Shown: one piece after another, positions 1-41,134 of the stretch | Layout: each line of letters begins with the position of its first letter | Numbering within the stretch: position 1 is the stretch's first letter | Source of the DNA: Escherichia coli | Lineage (GTDB): Bacteria; Pseudomonadota; Gammaproteobacteria; Enterobacterales; Enterobacteriaceae | NCBI RefSeq assembly: GCF_024223415.1 | Contig: NZ_CP100500.1 | Strand: one strand, 5' to 3' | Length of the DNA: 64,000 nt | The notes under the pieces: model-generated | The model's database searches: none | Told to the model about the DNA's origin: nothing | Seen by the model: only the letters and a program-made list of their open reading frames with translations | Program-made: the position numbers and the translations under genes

Positions 1-1
1 A

Positions 2-780
2 TTTAATTCCCGGCAGGCGGTTGAGCGCCTTCCTGGTGAAGATCCGGCTCAACTGAACGATCCGGCTTACCGCCGTCTGCGTATCATTACCGATAACCTC
101 AAACAGGAAGAGCACGCGATTGTCCAGGTGGAAGAAATGCAGGCGGTAAATGCCGTGCTGTATGGCAAATACACCATGGAAGGAGACCAGTTCGAGAAAA
201 TTGAGGTCGATTTTGGCAGGTCGACGAAGAATAACATTACGCAGGCCAGTGGTAAAAAATGGTCTGAGCACGATCGTGACACGTTCGATCCTGCGCATGA
301 TATTGACCTCTACTGCGACCAGGCCAGCGGCCTTGTGAATATTGCCATTATGGACGGTACCGTCTGGCGTCTGCTGAATGGTTTTAAGCTGTTCCGCGAA
401 AAACTGGATACCCGTCGCGGTTCAAATTCGCAACTCGAAACGGCAGTGAAAGACCTGGGGGCGGTGGTGTCTTTCAAAGGGTATTACGGTGATCTGGCCA
501 TTGTGGTGGCGAAAACGTCTTATGTGGCAGAGGACGGTACCGAAAAACGTTATCTGCCAGACGGCACGCTGGTCCTGGGGAATACTGCTGCAGATGGGAT
601 CCGTTGTTACGGTGCCATTCAGGATGCACAGGCGTTGTCTGAAGGAGTGGTGCCTCTTCCCGTTATCCGAAACACTGGCTGACGGTGGGGGATCCCGCCC
701 GTGAATTTACCATGACGCAGTCCGCGCCGCTGATGGTGTTGCCGGACCCGGATGAGTTTGTGGTGGTACAGGTGAAATAA
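2..780 (+). pseudogene. E: Major capsid protein, lambda gpE-like; 5' end lies outside the window; reading frame switches near 641-646
   Basis: Translation from position 2 matches my recollection of lambda gpE (..RRLPGEDPAQLNDPAYRRLRII.., EEMQAVNAVLYGKYTM). The conserved C-terminus (SGASSRYPKHWLTVGDPAREFTMTQSAPLMVLPDPDEFVVVQVK, stop 778-780) is in a different frame from the upstream part, which stops at 680-682. Confidence 0.6.
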
Positions 781-787
781 TCCGTGA

Positions 788-817
788 GCGGGGGCGAAAT
801 GCCCCCGTGTCTTTTTT
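788..817 (+). terminator. Intrinsic-terminator-like hairpin (GC stem 789-795/801-807, then T6) between capsid gene and FI
   Basis: cGGGGGC-gaaat-GCCCCCg followed by gtcTTTTTTc, read directly. Confidence 0.4.
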
Positions 818-831
818 CACAGGGGGCTGAT

Positions 832-1194
832 ATGGCAACGAAAGAGCAAAATCTGAAACGGCTTGATGAACTGGCCCTGATTCTGGGGCGTGAGCCGGAT
901 ATATCCGGGAGTGCCGCAGAGATAGCGCAGCGGGTGGCGGAATGGGAAGAGGAAGCAGAGGACAAAAACCAGGAGAGTGATGAGAACGAAAGGCATTTGA
1001 TGACGTATAGCCACTCCACTGGCGGGGATGAAATGAGCACTGTTCGTGTACTCAAAACCCTGCATGTGGCGGGAAAACATCCGCATGATGACAGTGATAT
1101 GGAGATTGTTGTTACAGGTATGACTGTCAGAGTTGATCCAGTGAATGTTGCGGAACTTGTCCTGGAGGGGCTTGTTACAGATGAAAGTTATTAA
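832..1194 (+). CDS. FI: Head assembly / DNA-packaging protein, lambda FI-like
   Basis: ATG at 832 behind AGGGGG; position between E and FII; C-terminal region resembles lambda FI as I recall it. Confidence 0.55.
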   Translation: MATKEQNLKRLDELALILGREPDISGSAAEIAQRVAEWEEEAEDKNQESDENERHLMTYSHSTGGDEMSTVRVLKTLHVAGKHPHDDSDMEIVVTGMTVRVDPVNVAELVLEGLVTDESY

Positions 1195-1543
1195 TATCAG
1201 GGATAACGGTTTTGATACAGCCATTGCCCGGGCTGATGAAACGATACGCGGGCATATGGGAACGTCAGCCACCATTACATCCGGTGAGCAGCCCGGCGCA
1301 GTAATACGTGGTGTTTTTGATGACCCTGAAAATATCAGCTATGCCGGACAGGGCGTGCGCGTTGAAGGCTCCAGCCCGTCCCTGTTTGTCCGGACTGATG
1401 ATGTGCGGCAACTGCGGCGTGGAGACACGCTGACCATCGGTGAGGAAAACTTCTGGATAGACCGGGTTTCGCCGGATGATGGCGGAAGCTGTCATCTCTG
1501 GCTTGGGCGGGGCGTACCGCCTGCCGTTAATCGTCGCCGCTGA
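1181..1543 (+). CDS. FII: Head-tail joining protein, lambda FII-like
   Basis: AIARADETIRGHMGTSATITSGEQPGAVIRGVFDDPENISYAGQGVRVEGSSPSLFVRTDDVRQLRRGDTLTIGEENFW matches lambda gpFII almost residue for residue. Confidence 0.8.
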   Translation: MKVINIRDNGFDTAIARADETIRGHMGTSATITSGEQPGAVIRGVFDDPENISYAGQGVRVEGSSPSLFVRTDDVRQLRRGDTLTIGEENFWIDRVSPDDGGSCHLWLGRGVPPAVNRRR

Positions 1544-1554
1544 AAGGGGGATGT

Positions 1555-2130
1555 ATGGCCATACAGGGTCTTGAGCAGGCCGTTGAAAACCTCAGCCGTA
1601 TCAGCAGAACGGCGGTGCCTGGTGCCGCCGCAATGGCCATTAACCGCGTGGCCACAACGGCGATTAATCAGTCTTCGTCTCAGGTCGCCCGTGAAACCCG
1701 GGTGCCGAGAAAACTTGTTAAAGAGCGATCCAGACTGAAACGGGCTACGGTCAGAAATCCGAACGCAAAAATTATCGTTAACCGCGGCGATCTTCCTGTG
1801 ATTAAGCTGGGGATCAGGATGCTGGGACGTCGCCCGAACAGCATACTCAAAGCCGGTCAGCATCGTTATCAGCGGGCATTCATCCAGCGACTGAATAATG
1901 GGCGCTGGCATGTTATGCAACGTCTGCCAGAAGCCAGGTATGCGAAGGGCAATGACGATAAGGGAAGGAAAAAGCGTAATCGTCTTCCCATTCAGGTGGT
2001 GAAAATTCCGATGTCGGCCCCACTGAAACAGGCTTTTGATGAGAACGTTAACCGTATCCGACGCGAACGTCTGCCAAAAGAACTGAGCTATGCGCTGAAA
2101 CAACAACTGAGGATTGTGATAAAGCGATGA
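1555..2130 (+). CDS. Z: Tail completion protein, lambda Z-like
   Basis: 191 aa, order and size as lambda gpZ. Confidence 0.75.
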   Translation: MAIQGLEQAVENLSRISRTAVPGAAAMAINRVATTAINQSSSQVARETRVPRKLVKERSRLKRATVRNPNAKIIVNRGDLPVIKLGIRMLGRRPNSILKAGQHRYQRAFIQRLNNGRWHVMQRLPEARYAKGNDDKGRKKRNRLPIQVVKIPMSAPLKQAFDENVNRIRRERLPKELSYALKQQLRIVIKR

Positions 2131-2522
2131 AAAATACTGATATCCGTACAGCCGTACTGGATGCACTGGAGAAGCATGACACCGGGGCGACGTTTTTTGA
2201 TGGTCGCCCCGCTGTTTTTGATGAGGCGGATTTTCCGGCAGTTGCCGTTTATCTCACCGGCGCTGAATACACGGGCGAAGAGCTGGACAGCGATACCTGG
2301 CAGGCGGAGCTGCATATTGAAGTTTTCCTGCCTGCTCAGGTGCCGGATTCAGAGCTGGATTCGTGGATGGAGTCCCGGATTTATCCGGTGATGAGCGATA
2401 TCCCGGCACTGTCAGATTTGATCACCAGTATGGTGGCCAGTGGCTATGACTACCGGCGCGACGATGATGCGGGCCTGTGGAGTTCAGCCGATCTGACTTA
2501 TGTCATTACCTATGAAATGTGA
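2127..2522 (+). CDS. U: Tail terminator protein, lambda U-like
   Basis: 131 aa, 4-nt overlap with Z, same size as lambda gpU. Confidence 0.8.
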
Positions 2523-2529
2523 GGACGAT

Positions 2530-3270
2530 ATGCCAACACCAAATCCTCTGGCACCGGTGAAAGGGGCCGGGACCACCCTGTGGGTTTATAAGGGGAACGG
2601 TGACCCTTATGCGAACCCGCTTTCAGACAATGACTGGTCGCGTCTGGCTAAAGTTAAAGACCTGACGCCCGGCGAACTGACCGCAGATTTCTATGACGAC
2701 AGCTATCTCGATGATGAAGATGCGGACTGGGCCGCGACCGGACAGGGGCAGAAATCCGCCGGAGATACCAGCTTCACGCTGGCGTGGATGCCCGGAGAGC
2801 AGGGGCAGCAGGCGCTGCTGGCGTGGTTTAATGAAGGTGATACCCGTGCCTATAAAATCCGCTTCCCGAACGGCACGGTCGATGTGTTCCGCGGCTGGGT
2901 CAGCAGCATCGGTAAGGCGGTGACAGCGAAGGAAGTGATCACCCGCACGGTGAAAGTCACCAACGTGGGACGTCCGTCGATGGCAGAAGATCGCAGCACG
3001 CTAACAGCGGCAACCGGCATGACCGTGACGCCTGCCAGCACCTCGGTGGTGAAAGGGCAGAGCACCACGCTGACCGTGGCATTCCAGCCGGAAGGCGCAA
3101 CCGACAAGAGCTTCCGTGCGGTGTCTGCGGATAAAACAAAAGCCACCGTGTCGGTCAGTGGTATGACCATCACCGTGAAGGGCGTTGCTGCAGGCAGGGT
3201 CAACATTCCGGTCGTATCCGGTAATGGTGAACTTGCTGCGGTTGCAGAAATCAACGTCACCGCCAGTTAA
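2530..3270 (+). CDS. V: Major tail tube protein, lambda V-like, with C-terminal Ig-like domain
   Basis: [23 protein letters not shown]-terminus; ATG 2530 preferred over the ORF-track start at 2500; beta-rich C-terminal domain. Confidence 0.8.
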
Positions 3271-3285
3271 TCCGGAGAGTCAGCG

Positions 3286-3708
3286 ATGTTCCTGAAAAAC
3301 GAATCATTTGAACATAACGGCGTGACCGTCACGCTTTCTGAACTGTCAGCCCTGCAGCGTATTGAGCATCTTGCCTGGTTGAAAGAGCAGGAAAAAAAGG
3401 CTGAATCCAGTGGCAACCTGCAGGTGTCTGTAGAGGATCTTATCAGAGGCGGGGCGTTTCTGGTGGCGATGTCTCTGTGGCATAACCATCCGCAGAAGAC
3501 AAAGCTGCTGCCCATGAATGAAGCCATTACGCAGATTGAGCAGGAAGTGCTTACCACCTGGCCCACGGAGGCAATTGCTCAGGCTGAAAACGTGGTGTTA
3601 CGTCTGTCCGGAATGTCTGAGTTTGTTGTGAATAATGCCCCTGAACAGGCAGATGACGCCGGGCCTGCAGAGCCTGTTTCTGCGGGAAAGTGTTCGACGG
3701 TGAGCTGA
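3286..3708 (+). CDS. G: Tail assembly chaperone, lambda G-like
   Basis: 140 aa immediately upstream of the tape measure gene; ends just after a GGGAAAG heptamer. Confidence 0.8.
   Translation: MFLKNESFEHNGVTVTLSELSALQRIEHLAWLKEQEKKAESSGNLQVSVEDLIRGGAFLVAMSLWHNHPQKTKLLPMNEAITQIEQEVLTTWPTEAIAQAENVVLRLSGMSEFVVNNAPEQADDAGPAEPVSAGKCSTVS
3684..3690 (+). other. Slippery heptamer G GGA AAG for -1 programmed ribosomal frameshift (G to G-T)
   Basis: GGGAAAG sits 16 nt before the G stop; the -1 frame opens straight into the T reading frame. Confidence 0.65.
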
Positions 3709-4124
3709 GTTTTGCCCTGAAACTGGCGCGTGAGATGGGGCGACCCGACTGGCGCGCCATGCTTGCCGGGATGTCATCCACGGAGTATGCCGACTGGCAC
3801 CGCTTTTACAGTACCCATTATTTTCATGATGTTCTGCTGGATATGCACTTTTCCGGGCTGACGTACACCGTGCTCAGCCTGTTTTTCAGCGATCCGGATA
3901 TGCATCCGCTGGATTTCAGTCTGCTGAACCGGCGCGAGGCTGACGAAGAGCCTGAAGATGATGTGCTGATGCAGAAAGCGGCAGGGCTTGCCGGAGGCGT
4001 CCGCTTTGGCCCGGACGGGAATGAAGTTATCCCTGCATCCCCGGATGTGGCGGACATGACGGAGGATGACGTAATGCTGATGACAGTATCAGAAGGGATC
4101 GCAGGAGGAGTCCGGTATGGCTGA
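3690..4124 (+). CDS. T: T segment of the G-T fusion tail assembly chaperone (made by -1 frameshift, no own start)
   Basis: Open frame overlapping the G 3' end and ending 8 nt into H, the lambda G/T arrangement. Confidence 0.7.
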   Translation: MFDGELSFALKLAREMGRPDWRAMLAGMSSTEYADWHRFYSTHYFHDVLLDMHFSGLTYTVLSLFFSDPDMHPLDFSLLNRREADEEPEDDVLMQKAAGLAGGVRFGPDGNEVIPASPDVADMTEDDVMLMTVSEGIAGGVRYG

Positions 4125-6696
4125 ACCGGTAGGCGATCTGGTCGTTGATTTAAGTCTGGATGCGGCCAGGTTTGACGAGCAGATGGCCAGAGTCAGGCGT
4201 CATTTTTCCGGTACGGAAAGTGATGCGAAAAAAACAGCGGCAGTCGTTGAACAGTCAATGAACCGGCAGGCGCTGGCTGCACAGAAAGCGGGGATTTCCG
4301 TCGGACAGTATAAAGCCGCCATGCGTATGCTGCCTGCACAGTTCACCGACGTGGCCACACAGCTTGCAGGCGGGCAGAGTCCGTGGCTGATCCTGCTGCA
4401 ACAGGGTGGTCAGGTGAAGGACTCCTTCGGCGGGATGATCCCCATGTTCAGGGGGCTTGCCGGTGCGATCACCCTGCCGATGGTCGGGGCCACCTCGCTG
4501 GCGGTGGCGACCGGTGCGCTGGCGTATGCCTGGTATCAGGGCAACTCAACCCTGTCCGATTTCAACAAAACGCTGGTCCTTTCCGGCAATCAGGCGGGAC
4601 TGACGGCAGATCGTATGCTGGTCCTGTCCAGAGCCGGGCAGGCGGCAGGGCTGACGTTTAACCAGACCAGCGAGTCACTCAGCGCACTGGTTAAGGCGGG
4701 GGTAAGCGGTGAGGCTCAGATTGCGTCCATCAGCCAGAGTGTGGCGCGTTTCTCCTCTGCATCCGGCGTGGAGGTGGACAAGGTCGCTGAAGCCTTCGGG
4801 AAGCTGACCACAGACCCGACGTCGGGGCTGACGGCGATGGCGCGCCAGTTCCATAACGTGACGGCGGAGCAGATTGCGTATGTTGCTCAGTTGCAGCGTT
4901 CCGGCGATGAGGCAGGGGCATTGCAGGCGGCGAACGAGGCCGCAACGAAAGGGTTTGATGACCAGACCCGCCGCCTGAAAGAGAACATGGGCACGCTGGA
5001 GACCTGGGCAGACAGGACAGCGCGGGCATTCAAATCCATGTGGGATTCGGTGCTGGATATTGGTCTCCCGGACACTGCCCGGGAAATGCTGGAGAAAGCA
5101 GAAAAGGCTTTTGATGAGGCGGACAAAAAATGGCAGTGGTATCAGAGCCGGAGCCACCGGCGCGGTAAAACCTCAGCATTTCTTGCCAATCTCCGGGGAG
5201 CATGGGAGGACAGAGCGAATGCGCAACTTGGGCTTTCAGCCGCCACGTTGCAGGCCGATCTTGAAAAGGCCAGAGAGATGGCAGCAAAGGACTGGGCCGA
5301 CTCTGAGGCATCACGGCTGAAATATACCGAAGAGGCGCAGAAGGCTTACGAACGCCTGCAGACACCGCTGGAGAAATATACCGCCCGTCAGGAAGAACTG
5401 AACAAGGCACTGAAAGACGGAAAAATCCTGCAGGCAGATTACAACACGCTGATGGCGGCGGCGAAAAAGGATTATGAAGCGACGCTGAAAAAGCCGAAAC
5501 AGTCCGGCGTGAAGGTGTCTGCGGGCGATCGTCAGGAAGACAGTGCTCATGCCGCCCTGCTGACGCTTCAGGCAGAACTCCGGACGCTGGAGAAGCATGC
5601 CGGAGCAAATGAGAAAATCAGCCAGCAGCGCCGGGATTTGTGGAAGGCGGAGAGTCAGTTCGCGGTACTGGAGGAGGCGGCGCAACGTCGCCAGCTGTCT
5701 GCACAGGAGAAATCCCTGCTGGCGCATAAAGATGAGACGCTGGAGTACAAACGCCAGCTGGCTGCACTTGGCGACAAGGTTACGTATCAGGAGCGCCTGA
5801 ACGCGCTGGCGCAGCAGGCGGATAAATTCGCACAGCAGCAACGGGCAAAACGGGCCGCCATTGATGCGAAAAGCCGGGGGCTGACTGACCGGCAGACAGA
5901 ACGGGAAGCCACGGAACAGCGCCTGAAGGAACAGTATGGCGATAATCCGCTGGCGCTGAATAACGTCATGTCAGAGCAGAAAAAGACCTGGGCGGCTGAA
6001 GACCAGCTTCGCGGGAACTGGATGGCAGGCCTGAAGTCCGGCTGGAGTGAGTGGGAAGAGAGCGCCACGGACAGTATGTCGCAGGTAAAAAGTGCAGCCA
6101 CGCAGACCTTTGATGGAATTGCACAGAATATGGCGGCGATGCTGACCGGCAGTGAGCAGAACTGGCGCAGCTTCACCCGTTCCGTGCTGTCCATGATGAC
6201 AGAAATTCTGCTTAAGCAGGCAATGGTGGGGATTGTCGGGAGTATCGGCAGCGTCATTGGCGGTGCTGCCGGTGGTGGCGCATCAGTGTCAGGCGGTACA
6301 GCCATTCAGGCTGCTGCGGCAAAATTCCATTTTGCGACCGGGGGATTTACGGGAACCGGCGGCAAATATGAGCCAGCGGGGATTGTTCACCGTGGTGAAT
6401 TTGTCTTCACGAAGGAGGCAACCAGCCGGATTGGTGTCGGCAACCTGTACCGCCTGATGCGGGGCTATGCGGAAGGTGGTTATGTGGGCGGTGCCGGAAG
6501 TCCGGCGCAGATGCGGCGGGCTGAAGGCATTAATTTTAATCAGAACAATCACGTGGTGATTCAGAACGACGGTACGAATGGTCTGCCAGGTCCACAGATG
6601 ATGAAGGCAGTGTATGACATGGCCCGCAAGGGTGCCCGTGATGAAATTCAGGCACAGATGCGCGATGGTGGTCTGTTCTCCGGAGGTGGACGATGA
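4117..6696 (+). CDS. H: Tail tape measure protein, lambda H-like
   Basis: 859 aa, alanine/glutamine-rich coiled coil, glycine-rich C-terminus; lambda H is about 853 aa. Confidence 0.85.
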   Translation: MAEPVGDLVVDLSLDAARFDEQMARVRRHFSGTESDAKKTAAVVEQSMNRQALAAQKAGISVGQYKAAMRMLPAQFTDVATQLAGGQSPWLILLQQGGQVKDSFGGMIPMFRGLAGAITLPMVGATSLAVATGALAYAWYQGNSTLSDFNKTLVLSGNQAGLTADRMLVLSRAGQAAGLTFNQTSESLSALVKAGVSGEAQIASISQSVARFSSASGVEVDKVAEAFGKLTTDPTSGLTAMARQFHNVTAEQIAYVAQLQRSGDEAGALQAANEAATKGFDDQTRRLKENMGTLETWADRTARAFKSMWDSVLDIGLPDTAREMLEKAEKAFDEADKKWQWYQSRSHRRGKTSAFLANLRGAWEDRANAQLGLSAATLQADLEKAREMAAKDWADSEASRLKYTEEAQKAYERLQTPLEKYTARQEELNKALKDGKILQADYNTLMAAAKKDYEATLKKPKQSGVKVSAGDRQEDSAHAALLTLQAELRTLEKHAGANEKISQQRRDLWKAESQFAVLEEAAQRRQLSAQEKSLLAHKDETLEYKRQLAALGDKVTYQERLNALAQQADKFAQQQRAKRAAIDAKSRGLTDRQTEREATEQRLKEQYGDNPLALNNVMSEQKKTWAAEDQLRGNWMAGLKSGWSEWEESATDSMSQVKSAATQTFDGIAQNMAAMLTGSEQNWRSFTRSVLSMMTEILLKQAMVGIVGSIGSVIGGAAGGGASVSGGTAIQAAAAKFHFATGGFTGTGGKYEPAGIVHRGEFVFTKEATSRIGVGNLYRLMRGYAEGGYVGGAGSPAQMRRAEGINFNQNNHVVIQNDGTNGLPGPQMMKAVYDMARKGARDEIQAQMRDGGLFSGGGR

Positions 6697-7022
6697 AAAC
6701 CTTCCGCTGGAAAGTGAAACCCGGTATGGATGTGGCTTCGGCCCCTTCCGTAAGAAAGGTGCGCTTTGGTGATGGCTATTCCCAGCGAGCGCCTGCCGGG
6801 CTGAACGCTGACCTGAAAACGTACAGCGTGACGCTTTCTGTTCCCCGTTGGGAGGCCACGGCGCTGGAGTCGTTTCTGGCTGAGCACGGGGGCTGGAAGG
6901 CCTTTCTGTGGACGCCGCCTTATGAGTGGCGGCAGATAAAGGTGACCTGCGCAAAATGGTCGTCGCGGGTCAGTATGCTGCGTGTTGAGTTCAGCGCAGA
7001 GTTTGAACAGGTGGTGAACTGA
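6693..7022 (+). CDS. M: Minor tail protein, lambda M-like
   Basis: 109 aa, 4-nt overlap with H; same size as lambda gpM. Confidence 0.85.
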   Translation: MKTFRWKVKPGMDVASAPSVRKVRFGDGYSQRAPAGLNADLKTYSVTLSVPRWEATALESFLAEHGGWKAFLWTPPYEWRQIKVTCAKWSSRVSMLRVEFSAEFEQVVN

Positions 7023-7720
7023 TGCAGGATATCCGGCAGGAAACACTGAATGAATGCACCCGTGCGGAGCAGTCGGCCAGCGTGGTGCTCTGGGAAATCG
7101 ATCTGACAGAGGTCGGTGGCGAACGTTATTTTTTCTGTAATGAGCAGAACGAAAAAGGTGAGCCGGTCACCTGGCAGGAGCGGCAGTATCAGCCGTATCC
7201 CATTCAGGGGAGTGGTTTTGAACTGAATGGCAAAGGCACCAGTACGCGCCCCACGCTGACGGTTTCTAACCTGTACGGTATGGTCACCGGTATGGTGGAA
7301 GATATGCAGAGTCTGGTCGGCGGAACGGTGGTCCGGCGTAAAGTTTATGCCCGTTTTCTGGATGCGGTGAACTTCGTCAACGGAAACAGTGACGCCGATC
7401 CGGAGCAGGAGGTTATCAGCCGCTGGCGCATCGAGCAGTGCAGTGATTTGACAGCGGTCAGCGCGACCTTTGTACTGGCCACGCCGACGGAAACGGACGG
7501 CGCTGTTTTTCCGGGACGTATCATGCTGGCCAACACCTGCACCTGGACCTATCGCGGCGATGAGTGCGGTTATAGCGGTCCGGCGGTCGCGGATGAATAT
7601 GATCAGTCGACGTCCGATATCACGAAGGATAAATGCAGCAAATGCCTGAGCGGCTGTAAGTTCCGCAATAACGTCGGCAACTTTGGCGGTTTTCTTTCCA
7701 TTAACAAACTTTCGCAGTAA
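7022..7720 (+). CDS. L: Minor tail protein, lambda L-like
   Basis: 232 aa with cysteine cluster near C-terminus, as in lambda gpL. Confidence 0.85.
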   Translation: MQDIRQETLNECTRAEQSASVVLWEIDLTEVGGERYFFCNEQNEKGEPVTWQERQYQPYPIQGSGFELNGKGTSTRPTLTVSNLYGMVTGMVEDMQSLVGGTVVRRKVYARFLDAVNFVNGNSDADPEQEVISRWRIEQCSDLTAVSATFVLATPTETDGAVFPGRIMLANTCTWTYRGDECGYSGPAVADEYDQSTSDITKDKCSKCLSGCKFRNNVGNFGGFLSINKLSQ

Positions 7721-7725
7721 ATCCC

Positions 7726-8469
7726 ATGACACAGACAGAATCAGCGATTCTGGCGCACGCCCGGCGATGTGCGCCAGCGGAGTCGTGCGGCTTCGTGGTA
7801 AGCACGCCGGAGGGGGAAAGATATTTTCCCTGCGTGAATATCTCCGGTGAGCCGGAGGCGTATTTCCGTATGTCGCCGGAGGACTGGCTGCAGGCAGAGA
7901 TGCAGGGTGAGATTGTGGCACTGGTCCACAGTCACCCCGGTGGTCTGCCCTGGCTGAGTGAGGCCGACCGGCGGCTGCAGGTGCAGAGTGATTTGCCGTG
8001 GTGGCTGGTCTGCCGGGGGGCGATTCACAAGTTCCGCTGTGTGCCGCATCTCACCGGGCGGTGCTTTGAGCACGGGGTGACGGACTGTTACACGCTGTTC
8101 CGGGATGCTTACCATCTGGCGGGAATTGAGATGCCGGATTTTCATCGCGGGGATGACTGGTGGCGTAACGGTCAGAATCTCTATCTTGACAATATGGAGG
8201 CGACTGGTTTTTACCGTGTCGCACTGACAGAGGCGCAGCCCGGCGACGTGCTGCTGTGCTGTTTTGGTTCATCGGTGCCGAATCATGCCGCCATTTACTG
8301 CGGCGACGGCGGGCTGCTGCACCATATTCCTGAACAACTGAGCAAACGAGAGAGGTATACCGACAAATGGCAGCGACGCACACACTCCCTCTGGCGTCAC
8401 CGGGCATGGCACGCATCTGCCTTTACGGGGATTTGCAACGATTTGGCCGCCGCATCGACCTTCGTGTGA
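7726..8469 (+). CDS. K: Tail tip assembly protein, lambda K-like (JAMM and NlpC/P60-like motifs)
   Basis: HSHPGG motif and a later Cys/His region; overlaps I by about 100 nt as in lambda. An internal start near 7870 would give the 199-aa form. Confidence 0.7.
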   Translation: MTQTESAILAHARRCAPAESCGFVVSTPEGERYFPCVNISGEPEAYFRMSPEDWLQAEMQGEIVALVHSHPGGLPWLSEADRRLQVQSDLPWWLVCRGAIHKFRCVPHLTGRCFEHGVTDCYTLFRDAYHLAGIEMPDFHRGDDWWRNGQNLYLDNMEATGFYRVALTEAQPGDVLLCCFGSSVPNHAAIYCGDGGLLHHIPEQLSKRERYTDKWQRRTHSLWRHRAWHASAFTGICNDLAAASTFV

Positions 8470-9014
8470 AAACGGGAGCCGAAGCCATCCGGGCGCTGGC
8501 CACGCAGCTCCCTGCGTTTCGTCAGAAACTGAGCGACGGCTGGTATCAGGTGCGTATTGCCGGGCGTGATACAGGCGAAAACGAATTATCAGCCCGTCTT
8601 AATGAACCGCTGGCAAATGGTGCCGTGATCCACATCGTGCCGCGTCTGGCGGGAGCCAAACGTGGTGGTGTGTTTCAGGCAGTGCTGGGCGCGGCGCTGA
8701 TTGCGGTGGCATGGTGGAACCCTGCAGGCTGGCTGGGGGCTGCGGCTTTATCGGGCATGTATGCGGCAGGGGCCAGTATGGTGCTCGGTGGTGTGGCGCA
8801 GATGCTGGCACCGAAAGCCAGAATGCCCGGAGTATCAGCCACGGATAACGGCAAACAGAACACCTATTTCTCCTCACTGGAAAACATGGTTGCCCAGGGG
8901 AATGCTCTGCCCGTTCTGTACGGTGAAATGCGCGTGGGGTCACGGGTAATTTCGCAGGAGATCAGCACAGCGGATGAGGGGGATGGCGTCCGGGTTGTGG
9001 TGATTGGTCGCTGA
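8367..9014 (+). CDS. I: Tail tip assembly protein, lambda I-like
   Basis: MAATHTLPLASPGMARICLYGDLQRFGRR and the C-terminal GKQNTYFSSLENMVAQGN..VLYGEMRVGSRV match lambda gpI. Confidence 0.75.
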   Translation: MAATHTLPLASPGMARICLYGDLQRFGRRIDLRVKTGAEAIRALATQLPAFRQKLSDGWYQVRIAGRDTGENELSARLNEPLANGAVIHIVPRLAGAKRGGVFQAVLGAALIAVAWWNPAGWLGAAALSGMYAAGASMVLGGVAQMLAPKARMPGVSATDNGKQNTYFSSLENMVAQGNALPVLYGEMRVGSRVISQEISTADEGDGVRVVVIGR

Positions 9015-9074
9015 TGCAAAATGTTTTATGTGAAACCGCCTCCGGGCGGTTTTGTCGTTTATGGAGCGTGAGGA

Positions 9075-19373: not shown

Positions 19374-19536
19374 AACGATAACTCCGTACATTTGAAAATT
19401 ATCGCCACCTTCAGGTTCCAATCATCATGGTGGCGAACTGTGCGGGGTTGGAACTACCGGGTACGGAAACCGGCGAGCCTTTCGGCTCCCCCACACAGCC
19501 CGCCATAAATCGCGAATGTGACTGTGCAAACGATAT

Positions 19537-19558
19537 GAAAAAAGACGCGGGCGCGTCT
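19537..19558 (-). terminator. Intrinsic-terminator-like hairpin on minus strand
   Basis: Minus strand: GAGACGC-gccc-GCGTCT followed by TTTTTT. Confidence 0.4.
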
Positions 19559-19843
19559 CATATCGCTCCGTAAACATCCGGGGTTCCAATCCCGACGCCA
19601 GATTTTGCTGACGCGTTGGAAATATAGCCCCGGAGGATAAAAACTGTCAACGGGTAAAAAATTTCCGTTATCAGGAATGTATAAAATTAAAGCAATCGAT
19701 CAAAAAATCCTTTCTGCAAAACTAAAAAAGATTTCAATAAAATCAGGCAGTTAAAAACGCTGAAAAACGGTATAAAAAAGCATCTCAAAATCCTGTTTTT
19801 TCTTTCAGATACAATATCTTATTTGATTTTTTAAAACCTGCCA

Positions 19844-19960
19844 GTGTGGTACATGGATATCGATACCACCGCCAATTATAAACTGGGCGGTGCACAGCAA
19901 CATGATAGCGTACGCCTCGATCCGTGGGTGTTTATGTTCTCAGCAGGATATCGTTTTTAA
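19844..19960 (+). pseudogene. ompW: Orphan 3' fragment of ompW (C-terminal about 37 codons); likely prophage-host junction
   Basis: Encodes ..WYMDIDTTANYKLGGAQQHDSVRLDPWVFMFSAGYRF-stop, matching the OmpW C-terminus; in-frame stop at 19832-19834 and no upstream ompW sequence. Confidence 0.6.
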
Positions 19961-19974
19961 TTCCGCACAAAAAC

Positions 19975-19995
19975 GACCCCGTAATATACGGGGTC
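19975..19995. terminator. Hairpin between convergent ompW remnant and yciE
   Basis: GACCCCGTA-ata-TACGGGGTC. Confidence 0.4.
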
Positions 19996-20019
19996 AATAA
20001 GGACATGGCATAAAGGGTA

Positions 20020-28248: not shown

Positions 28249-28270
28249 TGTTATTCTCTAATTTTGTTCA

Positions 28271-28297
28271 AAAAAAAGCCCGCTCATTAGGCGGGCT
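28271..28297 (-). terminator. trp attenuator (3:4 terminator hairpin)
   Basis: Minus strand AGCCCGC-cuaauga-GCGGGCU followed by U7, between trpL and trpE. Confidence 0.85.
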
Positions 28298-28339
28298 GGG
28301 TATCTGATTGCTTTACGCATGGTGAATACACTGCCCGTT

Positions 28340-28384
28340 TCAGGAAGTGCGCCACCAACCTTTCAGTACGAAAATTGCTTTCAT
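28340..28384 (-). CDS. trpL: trp operon leader peptide
   Basis: Minus strand atgaaagcaattttcgtactgaaaggttggtggcgcacttcctga = [14 protein letters not shown], with tandem Trp codons. Confidence 0.9.
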
Positions 28385-40762: not shown

Positions 40763-40875
40763 TTATCATCATTCTTATTACCCATTTTTAATGAATTACA
40801 GGGCTTTTAATACACCGCAGCAATAACAGGTTGAGTTATCTCAACACAAAGTAATAACCGTTAAGGGTGTAGCCT

Positions 40876-40971
40876 ATGATCAACACAAATATGAAATATT
40901 GGTCCTGGATGGGCGCGTTTTCTCTGTCGATGCTCTTCTGGGCCGAACTCCTCTGGATCATTACTCACTGA
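40876..40971 (+). CDS. Candidate small membrane protein (31 aa, MINTNMKYWSWMGAFSLSMLFWAELLWIITH)
   Basis: Short hydrophobic ORF behind GGGTG, upstream of acnA; K-12 has small proteins here but I cannot confirm identity. Confidence 0.3.
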   Translation: MINTNMKYWSWMGAFSLSMLFWAELLWIITH

Positions 40972-41134
40972 TCCCTGACCCTGCTGCGGCGGGGTTTTCA
41001 TTTGCTTTGCCACAAGCTTTCTCCTCTTTTATCAATTTGGGTTGTTATCAAATCGTTACGCGATGTTTGTGTTATCTTTAATATTCACCCTGAAGAGAAT
41101 CAGGGCTTCGCAACCCTGTCATTAAGGAGGAGCT

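Follow-up and report, generated by a model that had tools for sequence, protein, structure and literature searches.

The post-capsid gap and its flanking genes

The stretch of DNA analysed here (the window; 64,000 nt of Escherichia coli contig NZ_CP100500.1, assembly GCF_024223415.1) opens among the head-tail genes of a phage 21/D2-type lambdoid prophage, inside the major capsid gene. In the gap between this gene and the next, FI, lies an RNA hairpin followed by a U-rich tract, and the features of the gap and its flanks are as follows:

1..780, plus strand: 3′ part of the major capsid gene (lambda gpE family, phage-21 type), stop TAA at 778-780, identified by megablast to annotated major capsid genes
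782..823, plus strand: predicted outer helix, CCGUGA (782-787) with UCAC.AGG (817-823), from folding only
788..808, plus strand: RNA hairpin, 5′ arm GCGGGGGC (788-795), loop GAAAU (796-800), 3′ arm GCCCCCGU (801-808)
809..818, plus strand: U-rich tail GUCUUUUUUC, with T6 at 812-817, the U-run being offset by 3 nt from the stem
822..826, plus strand: FI Shine-Dalgarno sequence GGGGG, 5 nt upstream of the ATG; the phage 21 record marks its equivalent as a ribosome-binding site
832..1194, plus strand: FI gene (DNA-packaging protein FI; Pfam PF14000, E = 4e-21; gpFI in the AR_0085 annotation), the gene that comes next after the hairpin

The flanking genes are those assigned by an earlier note on this DNA: the capsid gene has 62% identity with lambda E, taken over the full-length phage 21 protein, and FI is recognised by its Pfam family. 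The intergenic gap, from the capsid stop (778-780) to the FI ATG at 832, spans 781-831; its intergenic placement was described correctly, and its length is 51 nt rather than the 50 given there. Among relatives the FI Shine-Dalgarno sequence varies (GGAGG, GGGAG, AGAGG, GGGAA).

All genes of the window from capsid through J are co-oriented. The prophage of E. coli AR_0085, which is 99.8% identical, holds the complete late operon on a single strand: a Q-lambda-family antiterminator (PF03589), lysis genes, terminase, portal, protease, decoration protein, capsid, FI, the tail genes and J. The element thus lies within a co-oriented late operon, as had been proposed. Phage 21, whose hairpin is identical to that of the window, uses Q21. 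Judging from the AR_0085 prophage and phage 21, the hairpin would be internal to a late operon under processive antitermination; this context has to be inferred from them because the window starts inside the capsid gene, with both the promoter and Q outside it.

Within the AR_0085 prophage (locus L100, 5969-6262 and 8255-9235), the serum-survival gene iss lies on the opposite strand after the lysis genes, and the late operon contains an IS5-family (ISKpn26) insertion that separates the lysis genes from the terminase genes.

The capsid reading frame of the window is itself broken by one missing G near 651 (window 645-655), where it has GTGGT-GCC as opposed to GTGGTGGCC in AR_0085 and phage 21. 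The capsid ORFs 128..682 and 685..780 are consequently in different frames, with a frame stop at 680-682 and the conserved C-terminus going on at 685-780. Either the prophage is defective or this is a homopolymer-type sequencing error, and given the frameshifted capsid gene, the hairpin in this particular copy may be a relic.

Anatomy of the hairpin and its rarity against chance

The coding strand reads GCGGGGGC-GAAAT-GCCCCCGT, then GTC, then TTTTTT (window 788-817), with the hairpin occupying 788-808. This is the anatomy of a Rho-independent terminator, a G/C-rich stem-loop followed by a T-rich tail, and sequence, scan and chance estimate all bear out the terminator-like hairpin that had been noticed at 788-817. 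The stem has eight pairs, seven G-C and a terminal G-U, closing a loop of 5 nt, and the isolated hairpin folds with −16.8 kcal/mol; it lies within the range of stem-loops of Rho-independent terminators (about 5-14 pairs, G/C-rich, short loop). The earlier description, a 7-bp GC stem followed by T6, is right as to the seven G-C pairs and the T6; it lacks the extra terminal G-U pair, and the T6 is not flush, with UGUC standing before U6. The tail has 7 T per 10 nt after the stem as compared with a T fraction of 0.22 for the locus, with G and C among its stem-proximal positions, the reference U-tract being about 7-9 nt immediately after the stem. In the read-through RNA, the minimum-free-energy fold places the hairpin and part of the U-tract inside the predicted outer helix, which we regard as an optional feature.

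In a tool scan of positions 1-20000, the 788-817 site ranks first among terminator-like sites. With a stricter definition (at least 8 pairs, at least 6 of them G-C, and at least 5 T in 8), two plus-strand sites are found in 20 kb, compared with 0.08 expected in first-order Markov random sequence, and at the level of the motif the expected count of such a site is about 2e-4 per 51-nt gap. Folding energies compared with composition-matched shuffles deviate modestly (z = −1.7 for 770-840 and −2.1 for 781-831), because G-runs and C-runs fold well by composition alone; these weak z-scores were therefore replaced by the motif-level chance estimate and by ranking within each locus. The non-random nature of the 788-808 hairpin is carried by the positional and comparative evidence.

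A gathering-threshold scan of the whole window placed no Rfam family over the hairpin site; in evalue mode (positions 1-3000), the site gives a chance-level match to the ylbH leader (14.3 bits compared with a gathering score of 50, E = 8.8). A terminator on the minus strand at 788-808 was also considered and rejected: the complement then runs into CTCACGGATTATTT, which has no T-run, and the scan lists no minus-strand site there.

Sister hairpins in the late operon

The post-capsid gap is one of several. Every long coding-strand gap of the window's late operon (post-capsid, I-to-J and post-J) has a hairpin, the two further ones being:

9033-9052 (with tail to 9062), plus strand: I-to-J hairpin, AAACCGCC-UCCG-GGCGGUUU then UGUCGUUUAU, U-rich, in a 60-nt gap; z = −2.7
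13002-13021 (with U5 to 13026), plus strand: post-J hairpin, GGGCGCCA-GAAA-UGGCGCCU then UUUUUAUUU; z = −3.8

The I-to-J hairpin has only five G-C pairs and was hence missed by the stricter scan; it is also unlisted by the terminator scan of the tool. Lambda has the same I-J element, with the loop UGCG. The post-J hairpin lies in the 58-nt gap between the tail-tip gene J and ORF 13042-14847, and among the plus-strand sites in 20 kb it alone equals the post-capsid one in quality.

In lambda, hairpins occupy five late-operon gaps: D-E, E-FI, I-J, J-lom and lom-orf401. The D-E hairpin (L003, 98-125) is of canonical terminator type, AAAGGCCGC-CUGU-GCGGCUUUUUUU, and stands directly before the capsid gene. 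It is found again in 705R4, Leclercia, Pluralibacter, two Vibrio phages and mEp237 (L085, L086, L087, L091, L106-L108), and the mEp237 record labels it a rho-independent terminator. Phage 21 has a hairpin without a U-run in its D-E gap, and the window's counterpart of that gap lies upstream of the window. Since the phage requires D and E in a ratio of roughly 1:1, an attenuator in the D-E gap is puzzling. As a set, the hairpins are as expected for an operon governed by processive antitermination.

Conservation across E-family capsid loci

Phages 21 and D2 have the intergenic sequence exactly as in the window, with an identical hairpin. All relatives from a scan of IMG/VR were at least 94% identical, which tells little about covariation: the hairpin is kept in 80 of them, with four types of stem substitution, all C-to-T and G-U preserving, and one single-base deletion. 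The 21-type relatives thus have only G-U-preserving single changes in the stem. A species-level genome scan yielded only 10 loci. The comparative set consists of 23 distinct loci for E-family capsids, the most distant at about 22% identity, and covers at least 17 host genera: Escherichia, Enterobacter, Providencia, Trabulsiella, Pluralibacter, Leclercia, Salmonella, Proteus, Vibrio, Aeromonas, Pseudomonas, Xanthomonas, Achromobacter, Acinetobacter, Erythrobacter, Ruegeria, Rhodobacter and a cyanobacterium.

A strong hairpin (−7.7 to −27 kcal/mol) is present in the post-capsid gap (34-82 nt) of all 23 loci; in two of them, gap and hairpin come after a 54-aa ORF abutting the capsid gene. With each locus serving as its own control, the post-capsid gap holds the most stable 30-nt fold of the roughly 2.2-kb locus in 8 of 18 and falls within the top 0.5% in 15 of 18. 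The hairpin starts 2-11 nt past the capsid stop in most enteric lambda-like loci (17 nt in Trabulsiella), and the start codon of the next gene follows 9-48 nt after it in all loci.

What is conserved is the position, as the stem sequences are unrelated between locus groups. The capsids of Providencia and Trabulsiella are about 80% identical to that of the window, yet have entirely different hairpins in the same place. Within the lambda-type subgroup, six of the seven stem pairs are invariant, the basal pair is A-U, G-U or G-C, and the loops vary; with so little variation, covariation is not distinguishable from shuffles (256 of 500). The tails are less uniform: with a background T of about 0.2, at least 5 T per 10 nt are found in 11 of the 23 loci, seven are intermediate and five are not U-rich. 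The invariant feature of the E-family loci is the hairpin, and a terminator-grade U-tract is common, not universal.

A mosaic junction was considered as an explanation and rejected, as homology among E. coli prophages runs from the capsid gene through the hairpin into FI, and lambda-type homology resumes only at FII (about 1202).

One contig in the collection deserves separate mention. The capsid gene on a 4.8-kb contig binned as a 'Collinsella sp.' MAG (JAIJJM010000220.1; L101) is of phage-21 type and 94% identical; starting at the capsid stop and reaching into FI, 75 nt that include the hairpin match an E. albertii prophage letter for letter, and the contig is almost certainly a mis-binned Escherichia prophage fragment.

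Counterparts in other phages and operons

The earlier note knew of no equivalent element at this position in lambda, and on this point it is wrong. In lambda (NC_001416, 7163-7190), a stem of 7 bp closed by a UUCG loop precedes a U-rich tail: the stem-loop, AUGGCCC-UUCG-GGGCCAU, occupies 7163-7180, the tail UGUUUCUCUG extends to 7190, and the FI Shine-Dalgarno sequence follows. As in the window, this is a stem-loop between E and FI in the same type of operon, separated in lambda by 2 nt from the E stop and by 21 nt from the FI start, with a G/C-rich stem (closed by a tetraloop in lambda), a U-rich tail and then the FI Shine-Dalgarno sequence. The stems are unrelated (AUGGCCC/GGGCCAU compared with GCGGGGGC/GCCCCCGU), and the lambda tail is weaker than GUCUUUUUUC of the window. 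The lambda RefSeq record has no annotation for the E-FI stem-loop. An absence from lambda is contradicted additionally by the curated record of P22, in which a 'stem_loop' at 6102-6119 after coat gene 5 (AGGGGC-UGCG-GCCCCU + UUCUUUAU) bears the note 'similar in location to stem-loops in phage HK97 and phage lambda'.

In HK97, a 'terminator, putative' is annotated at 5192-5213, directly after major head gene 5 (GGGCGGG-GAAA-CCCGCCC + UUUU). HK97 and P22 share with the window a G/C-rich hairpin with a T-rich tail after the capsid or coat gene, in a single late operon with Q-type antitermination (probable in the case of the window), whereas their gp5 proteins belong to other capsid sequence families and the downstream genes are not FI. 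The hairpin of the window, like the stem-loops annotated in these two phages, is intergenic on the coding strand with the operon continuing beyond it, and its position is conserved without conservation of sequence (23/23 loci; HK97, P22). On the evidence of sequence, then, 788-817 is the phage-21-type version of a positionally conserved hairpin of intrinsic-terminator type after the major capsid gene, and hairpins of this kind come after it in the late operons of lambda-like phages and of many other tailed phages. Though genuine and well beyond chance expectation, the hairpin is an ordinary one, its class being annotated in P22 and HK97 and present in lambda. What it adds is a correction of the belief that lambda has no post-capsid hairpin, and a refinement of annotation of small practical importance, as the phage 21 record and E. 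coli prophage annotations leave the hairpin unmarked.

The hairpins of HK97 (L111, 1693-1714) and of a Providencia prophage (L103, 1833-1851) share a 15-nt core, GCGGGGAAACCCGCC. The Providencia hairpin, CGGCGGG-GAAA-CCCGCCG, follows a capsid gene of a family unrelated to that of HK97, and the common core could have arisen by convergence towards a terminator with a GAAA loop or through transfer of a small cassette.

Hairpins placed likewise are known from other systems. The 2020 genome paper on the P22-like phage L describes intra-late-operon terminators as not unique and their roles as not known, and offers two options, partial termination or halting of transcription begun without antitermination (PMC8022706). 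No other explicit account of post-capsid terminators turned up in the literature searched, the papers on Tweety and SPP1 included. In T7, T-phi, the sole terminator for T7 RNA polymerase, lies right after capsid gene 10, and RNA-seq coverage falls beyond it (PMC6938266); LUZ100 has a strong terminator directly after its capsid gene (PMC10134795). In T7 (and with the LUZ100 equivalent) the downstream structural genes need read-through, and partial termination is experimentally established for T7; unlike in the window, where the element is known from sequence alone, the polymerase there is a single-subunit phage enzyme and there is no processive antiterminator.

A further parallel is provided by intercistronic 3′ stabiliser hairpins, such as the malE-malF REP element and the hairpins of the Rhodobacter capsulatus puf operon. 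Like the window's, these are stable hairpins in a polycistronic mRNA, placed behind an upstream cistron that is needed in larger amounts, where a longer life of the upstream segment is expected; unlike it, they need no U-tract and are not terminators. Terminator hairpins as such also raise upstream mRNA abundance (PMC11696848).

Possible roles of the hairpin

We tentatively favour, as a reading that falls somewhat short of an even chance, a conditional terminator: polymerase without Q would be stopped at it, Q-loaded polymerase would pass, and the hairpin would afterwards shield the 3′ end of the capsid mRNA. From the anatomy, the non-random occurrence, the conservation of position with turnover of sequence and the operon context, we infer each functional step as follows. 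Q-less polymerase, arriving through spurious or read-in transcription in the lysogen, would terminate at the hairpin and U-tract, so that expression of the structural genes would stay Q-dependent; with the U-run offset by 3 nt from the stem, such termination at 812-817 may be inefficient. In lytic growth, read-through by Q-loaded polymerase would be near-complete, with Q blocking hairpin formation in the RNA exit channel. Both Q21 and Q-lambda form a nozzle in this channel, prevent terminator hairpins and are processive over tens of kilobases (PMC9388147). The hairpin would then fold in the mRNA behind the polymerase and block 3′-to-5′ exonucleases after leak termination or a downstream endonuclease cut, whereby the capsid segment would outlive the distal message. 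The net outcome would be a modest enrichment of capsid mRNA with no large transcriptional step-down. A large step-down is unlikely because Q-loaded polymerase blocks terminator hairpins and because lambda keeps a terminator before its capsid gene: with a canonical terminator directly upstream of its most needed gene, lambda evidently relies on read-through by Q.

The main competitor on the side of transcription is a partial terminator acting in lytic growth, at which a fixed fraction of polymerases stops, leaving less transcript for FI and the tail genes than for the capsid gene. It would account for the terminator anatomy of 788-817 and for the enrichment of T-rich tails (11/23 loci), it is one of the two roles proposed for intra-operon terminators (PMC8022706), and it has precedents after the capsid gene in T-phi, with its drop in coverage (PMC6938266), and in the strong terminator of LUZ100 (PMC10134795). 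Furthermore, a leaky series after E, before J and after J would give a gradient of head > tail > tip that matches the protein needs, and antitermination by Q need not be complete: it is not necessarily 100% efficient, and some attenuation may be real. Nevertheless, we consider this reading unlikely, since Q-loaded polymerase blocks terminator hairpins (PMC9388147), an equal or better terminator before the capsid gene in lambda, mEp237, 705R4 and the Vibrio phages would cut the most needed protein, and several family members have no U-tract. The T7 analogy is limited by the different polymerase and the missing antiterminator, and the hairpin lies so near the stop of a heavily translated capsid gene that, from the size of the ribosome footprint, a terminating ribosome should hinder its folding. 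A hairpin that is simply a neutral passenger or relic, for example a terminator carried with a gene module in mosaic exchange and tolerated since Q-loaded polymerase ignores it, appears improbable. Q does render internal terminators harmless (PMC9388147), moron-type insertions in lambdoid late operons do bring their own terminators (e.g., after lom in lambda and after gp15 in HK97), and the capsid gene of the window is itself broken; but a strong hairpin stands at the same position in 23/23 loci from at least 17 host genera despite complete sequence turnover, the unrelated capsid families of HK97 and P22 have it too, the E. coli hairpin travels with its capsid gene without a mosaic junction (matches extend from capsid into FI), and the stem substitutions in close relatives keep the pairing.

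Translation offers another account, in which the hairpin and the U-rich tract shape the start of FI translation. The hairpin could be an insulator against re-initiation by ribosomes leaving the capsid gene, or a ribosome on the capsid stop could open the 5′ arm and free the C-rich 3′ arm to trap the G-rich Shine-Dalgarno sequence of FI. The next start codon lies within 9-48 nt of the hairpin in all loci, and the U-rich tracts stand just upstream of Shine-Dalgarno sequences. Additionally, when 763-793 is kept unpaired in the fold, the FI Shine-Dalgarno sequence drops in predicted accessibility from 0.46 to 0.00 (0.37 to 0.11 over a wider zone), though the ribosome-blocking window used in the folding is somewhat generous. 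The same trapping is weak or absent in other 21-type variants (0.45 to 0.44 for AGAGG, 0.56 to 0.49 for GGGAA) and in lambda, mEp237, Providencia, Leclercia, 705R4 and Chi, and the Shine-Dalgarno sequence varies against a constant 3′ arm, without covariation. Striking in the GGGGG allele and not conserved, trapping was accordingly rejected as the general purpose of the hairpin, and we hold a translational role of either form to be very improbable. A more exotic, local variant confines it to the GGGGG allele, where ribosomes terminating on the capsid gene would flip the hairpin and its 3′ arm would trap the FI ribosome-binding site.

In a further reading, the element is no transcription terminator in vivo at all and serves as a dedicated stabiliser of an mRNA segment or a processing landmark, setting the ratio of capsid to everything else post-transcriptionally. 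It arises because the hairpin, and not the U-tract, is invariant across the E-family loci regardless of host and transcription strategy. The hairpins without a U-rich tail (5/23) cannot be classical terminators in enteric hosts (Trabulsiella, Saba), and for these a pure stabiliser fits better than a conditional terminator. A difficulty for the conditional terminator is also that the hairpins follow the genes for the most abundant proteins (D and E) and are not evenly spaced, which a role in insulation alone does not explain. For the window, we hold it doubtful that the element acts in this way only; if it does, a stabiliser or processing landmark would be a general rule of tailed-phage late operons.

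In all the relatives examined, a terminator-type hairpin follows the capsid gene; others stand at several further late-operon junctions, in operons read by a terminator-resistant polymerase. At stake is whether these hairpins bear on structural-protein stoichiometry, on message stabilisation, or on Q dependence only, and the answer would be useful for engineering phage gene expression. For the conditional terminator and its competitors alike, lambda and phage 21 are tractable systems for mutational dissection of stem and U-tract.

Other elements of the window

Towards the distal end of the prophage, on the minus strand at 19426-19614, Rfam matches above the gathering score identify a C4 antisense RNA (19426-19510) and isrK (19538-19614), a pair typical of P1/P7-type antirepressor control regions in prophages. 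The window holds no tRNA genes anywhere. A Trp operon leader (28270-28363, minus strand) and the sRNA STnc180 (40803-41005, plus strand) show that it passes from the prophage into the host chromosome near the trp region.
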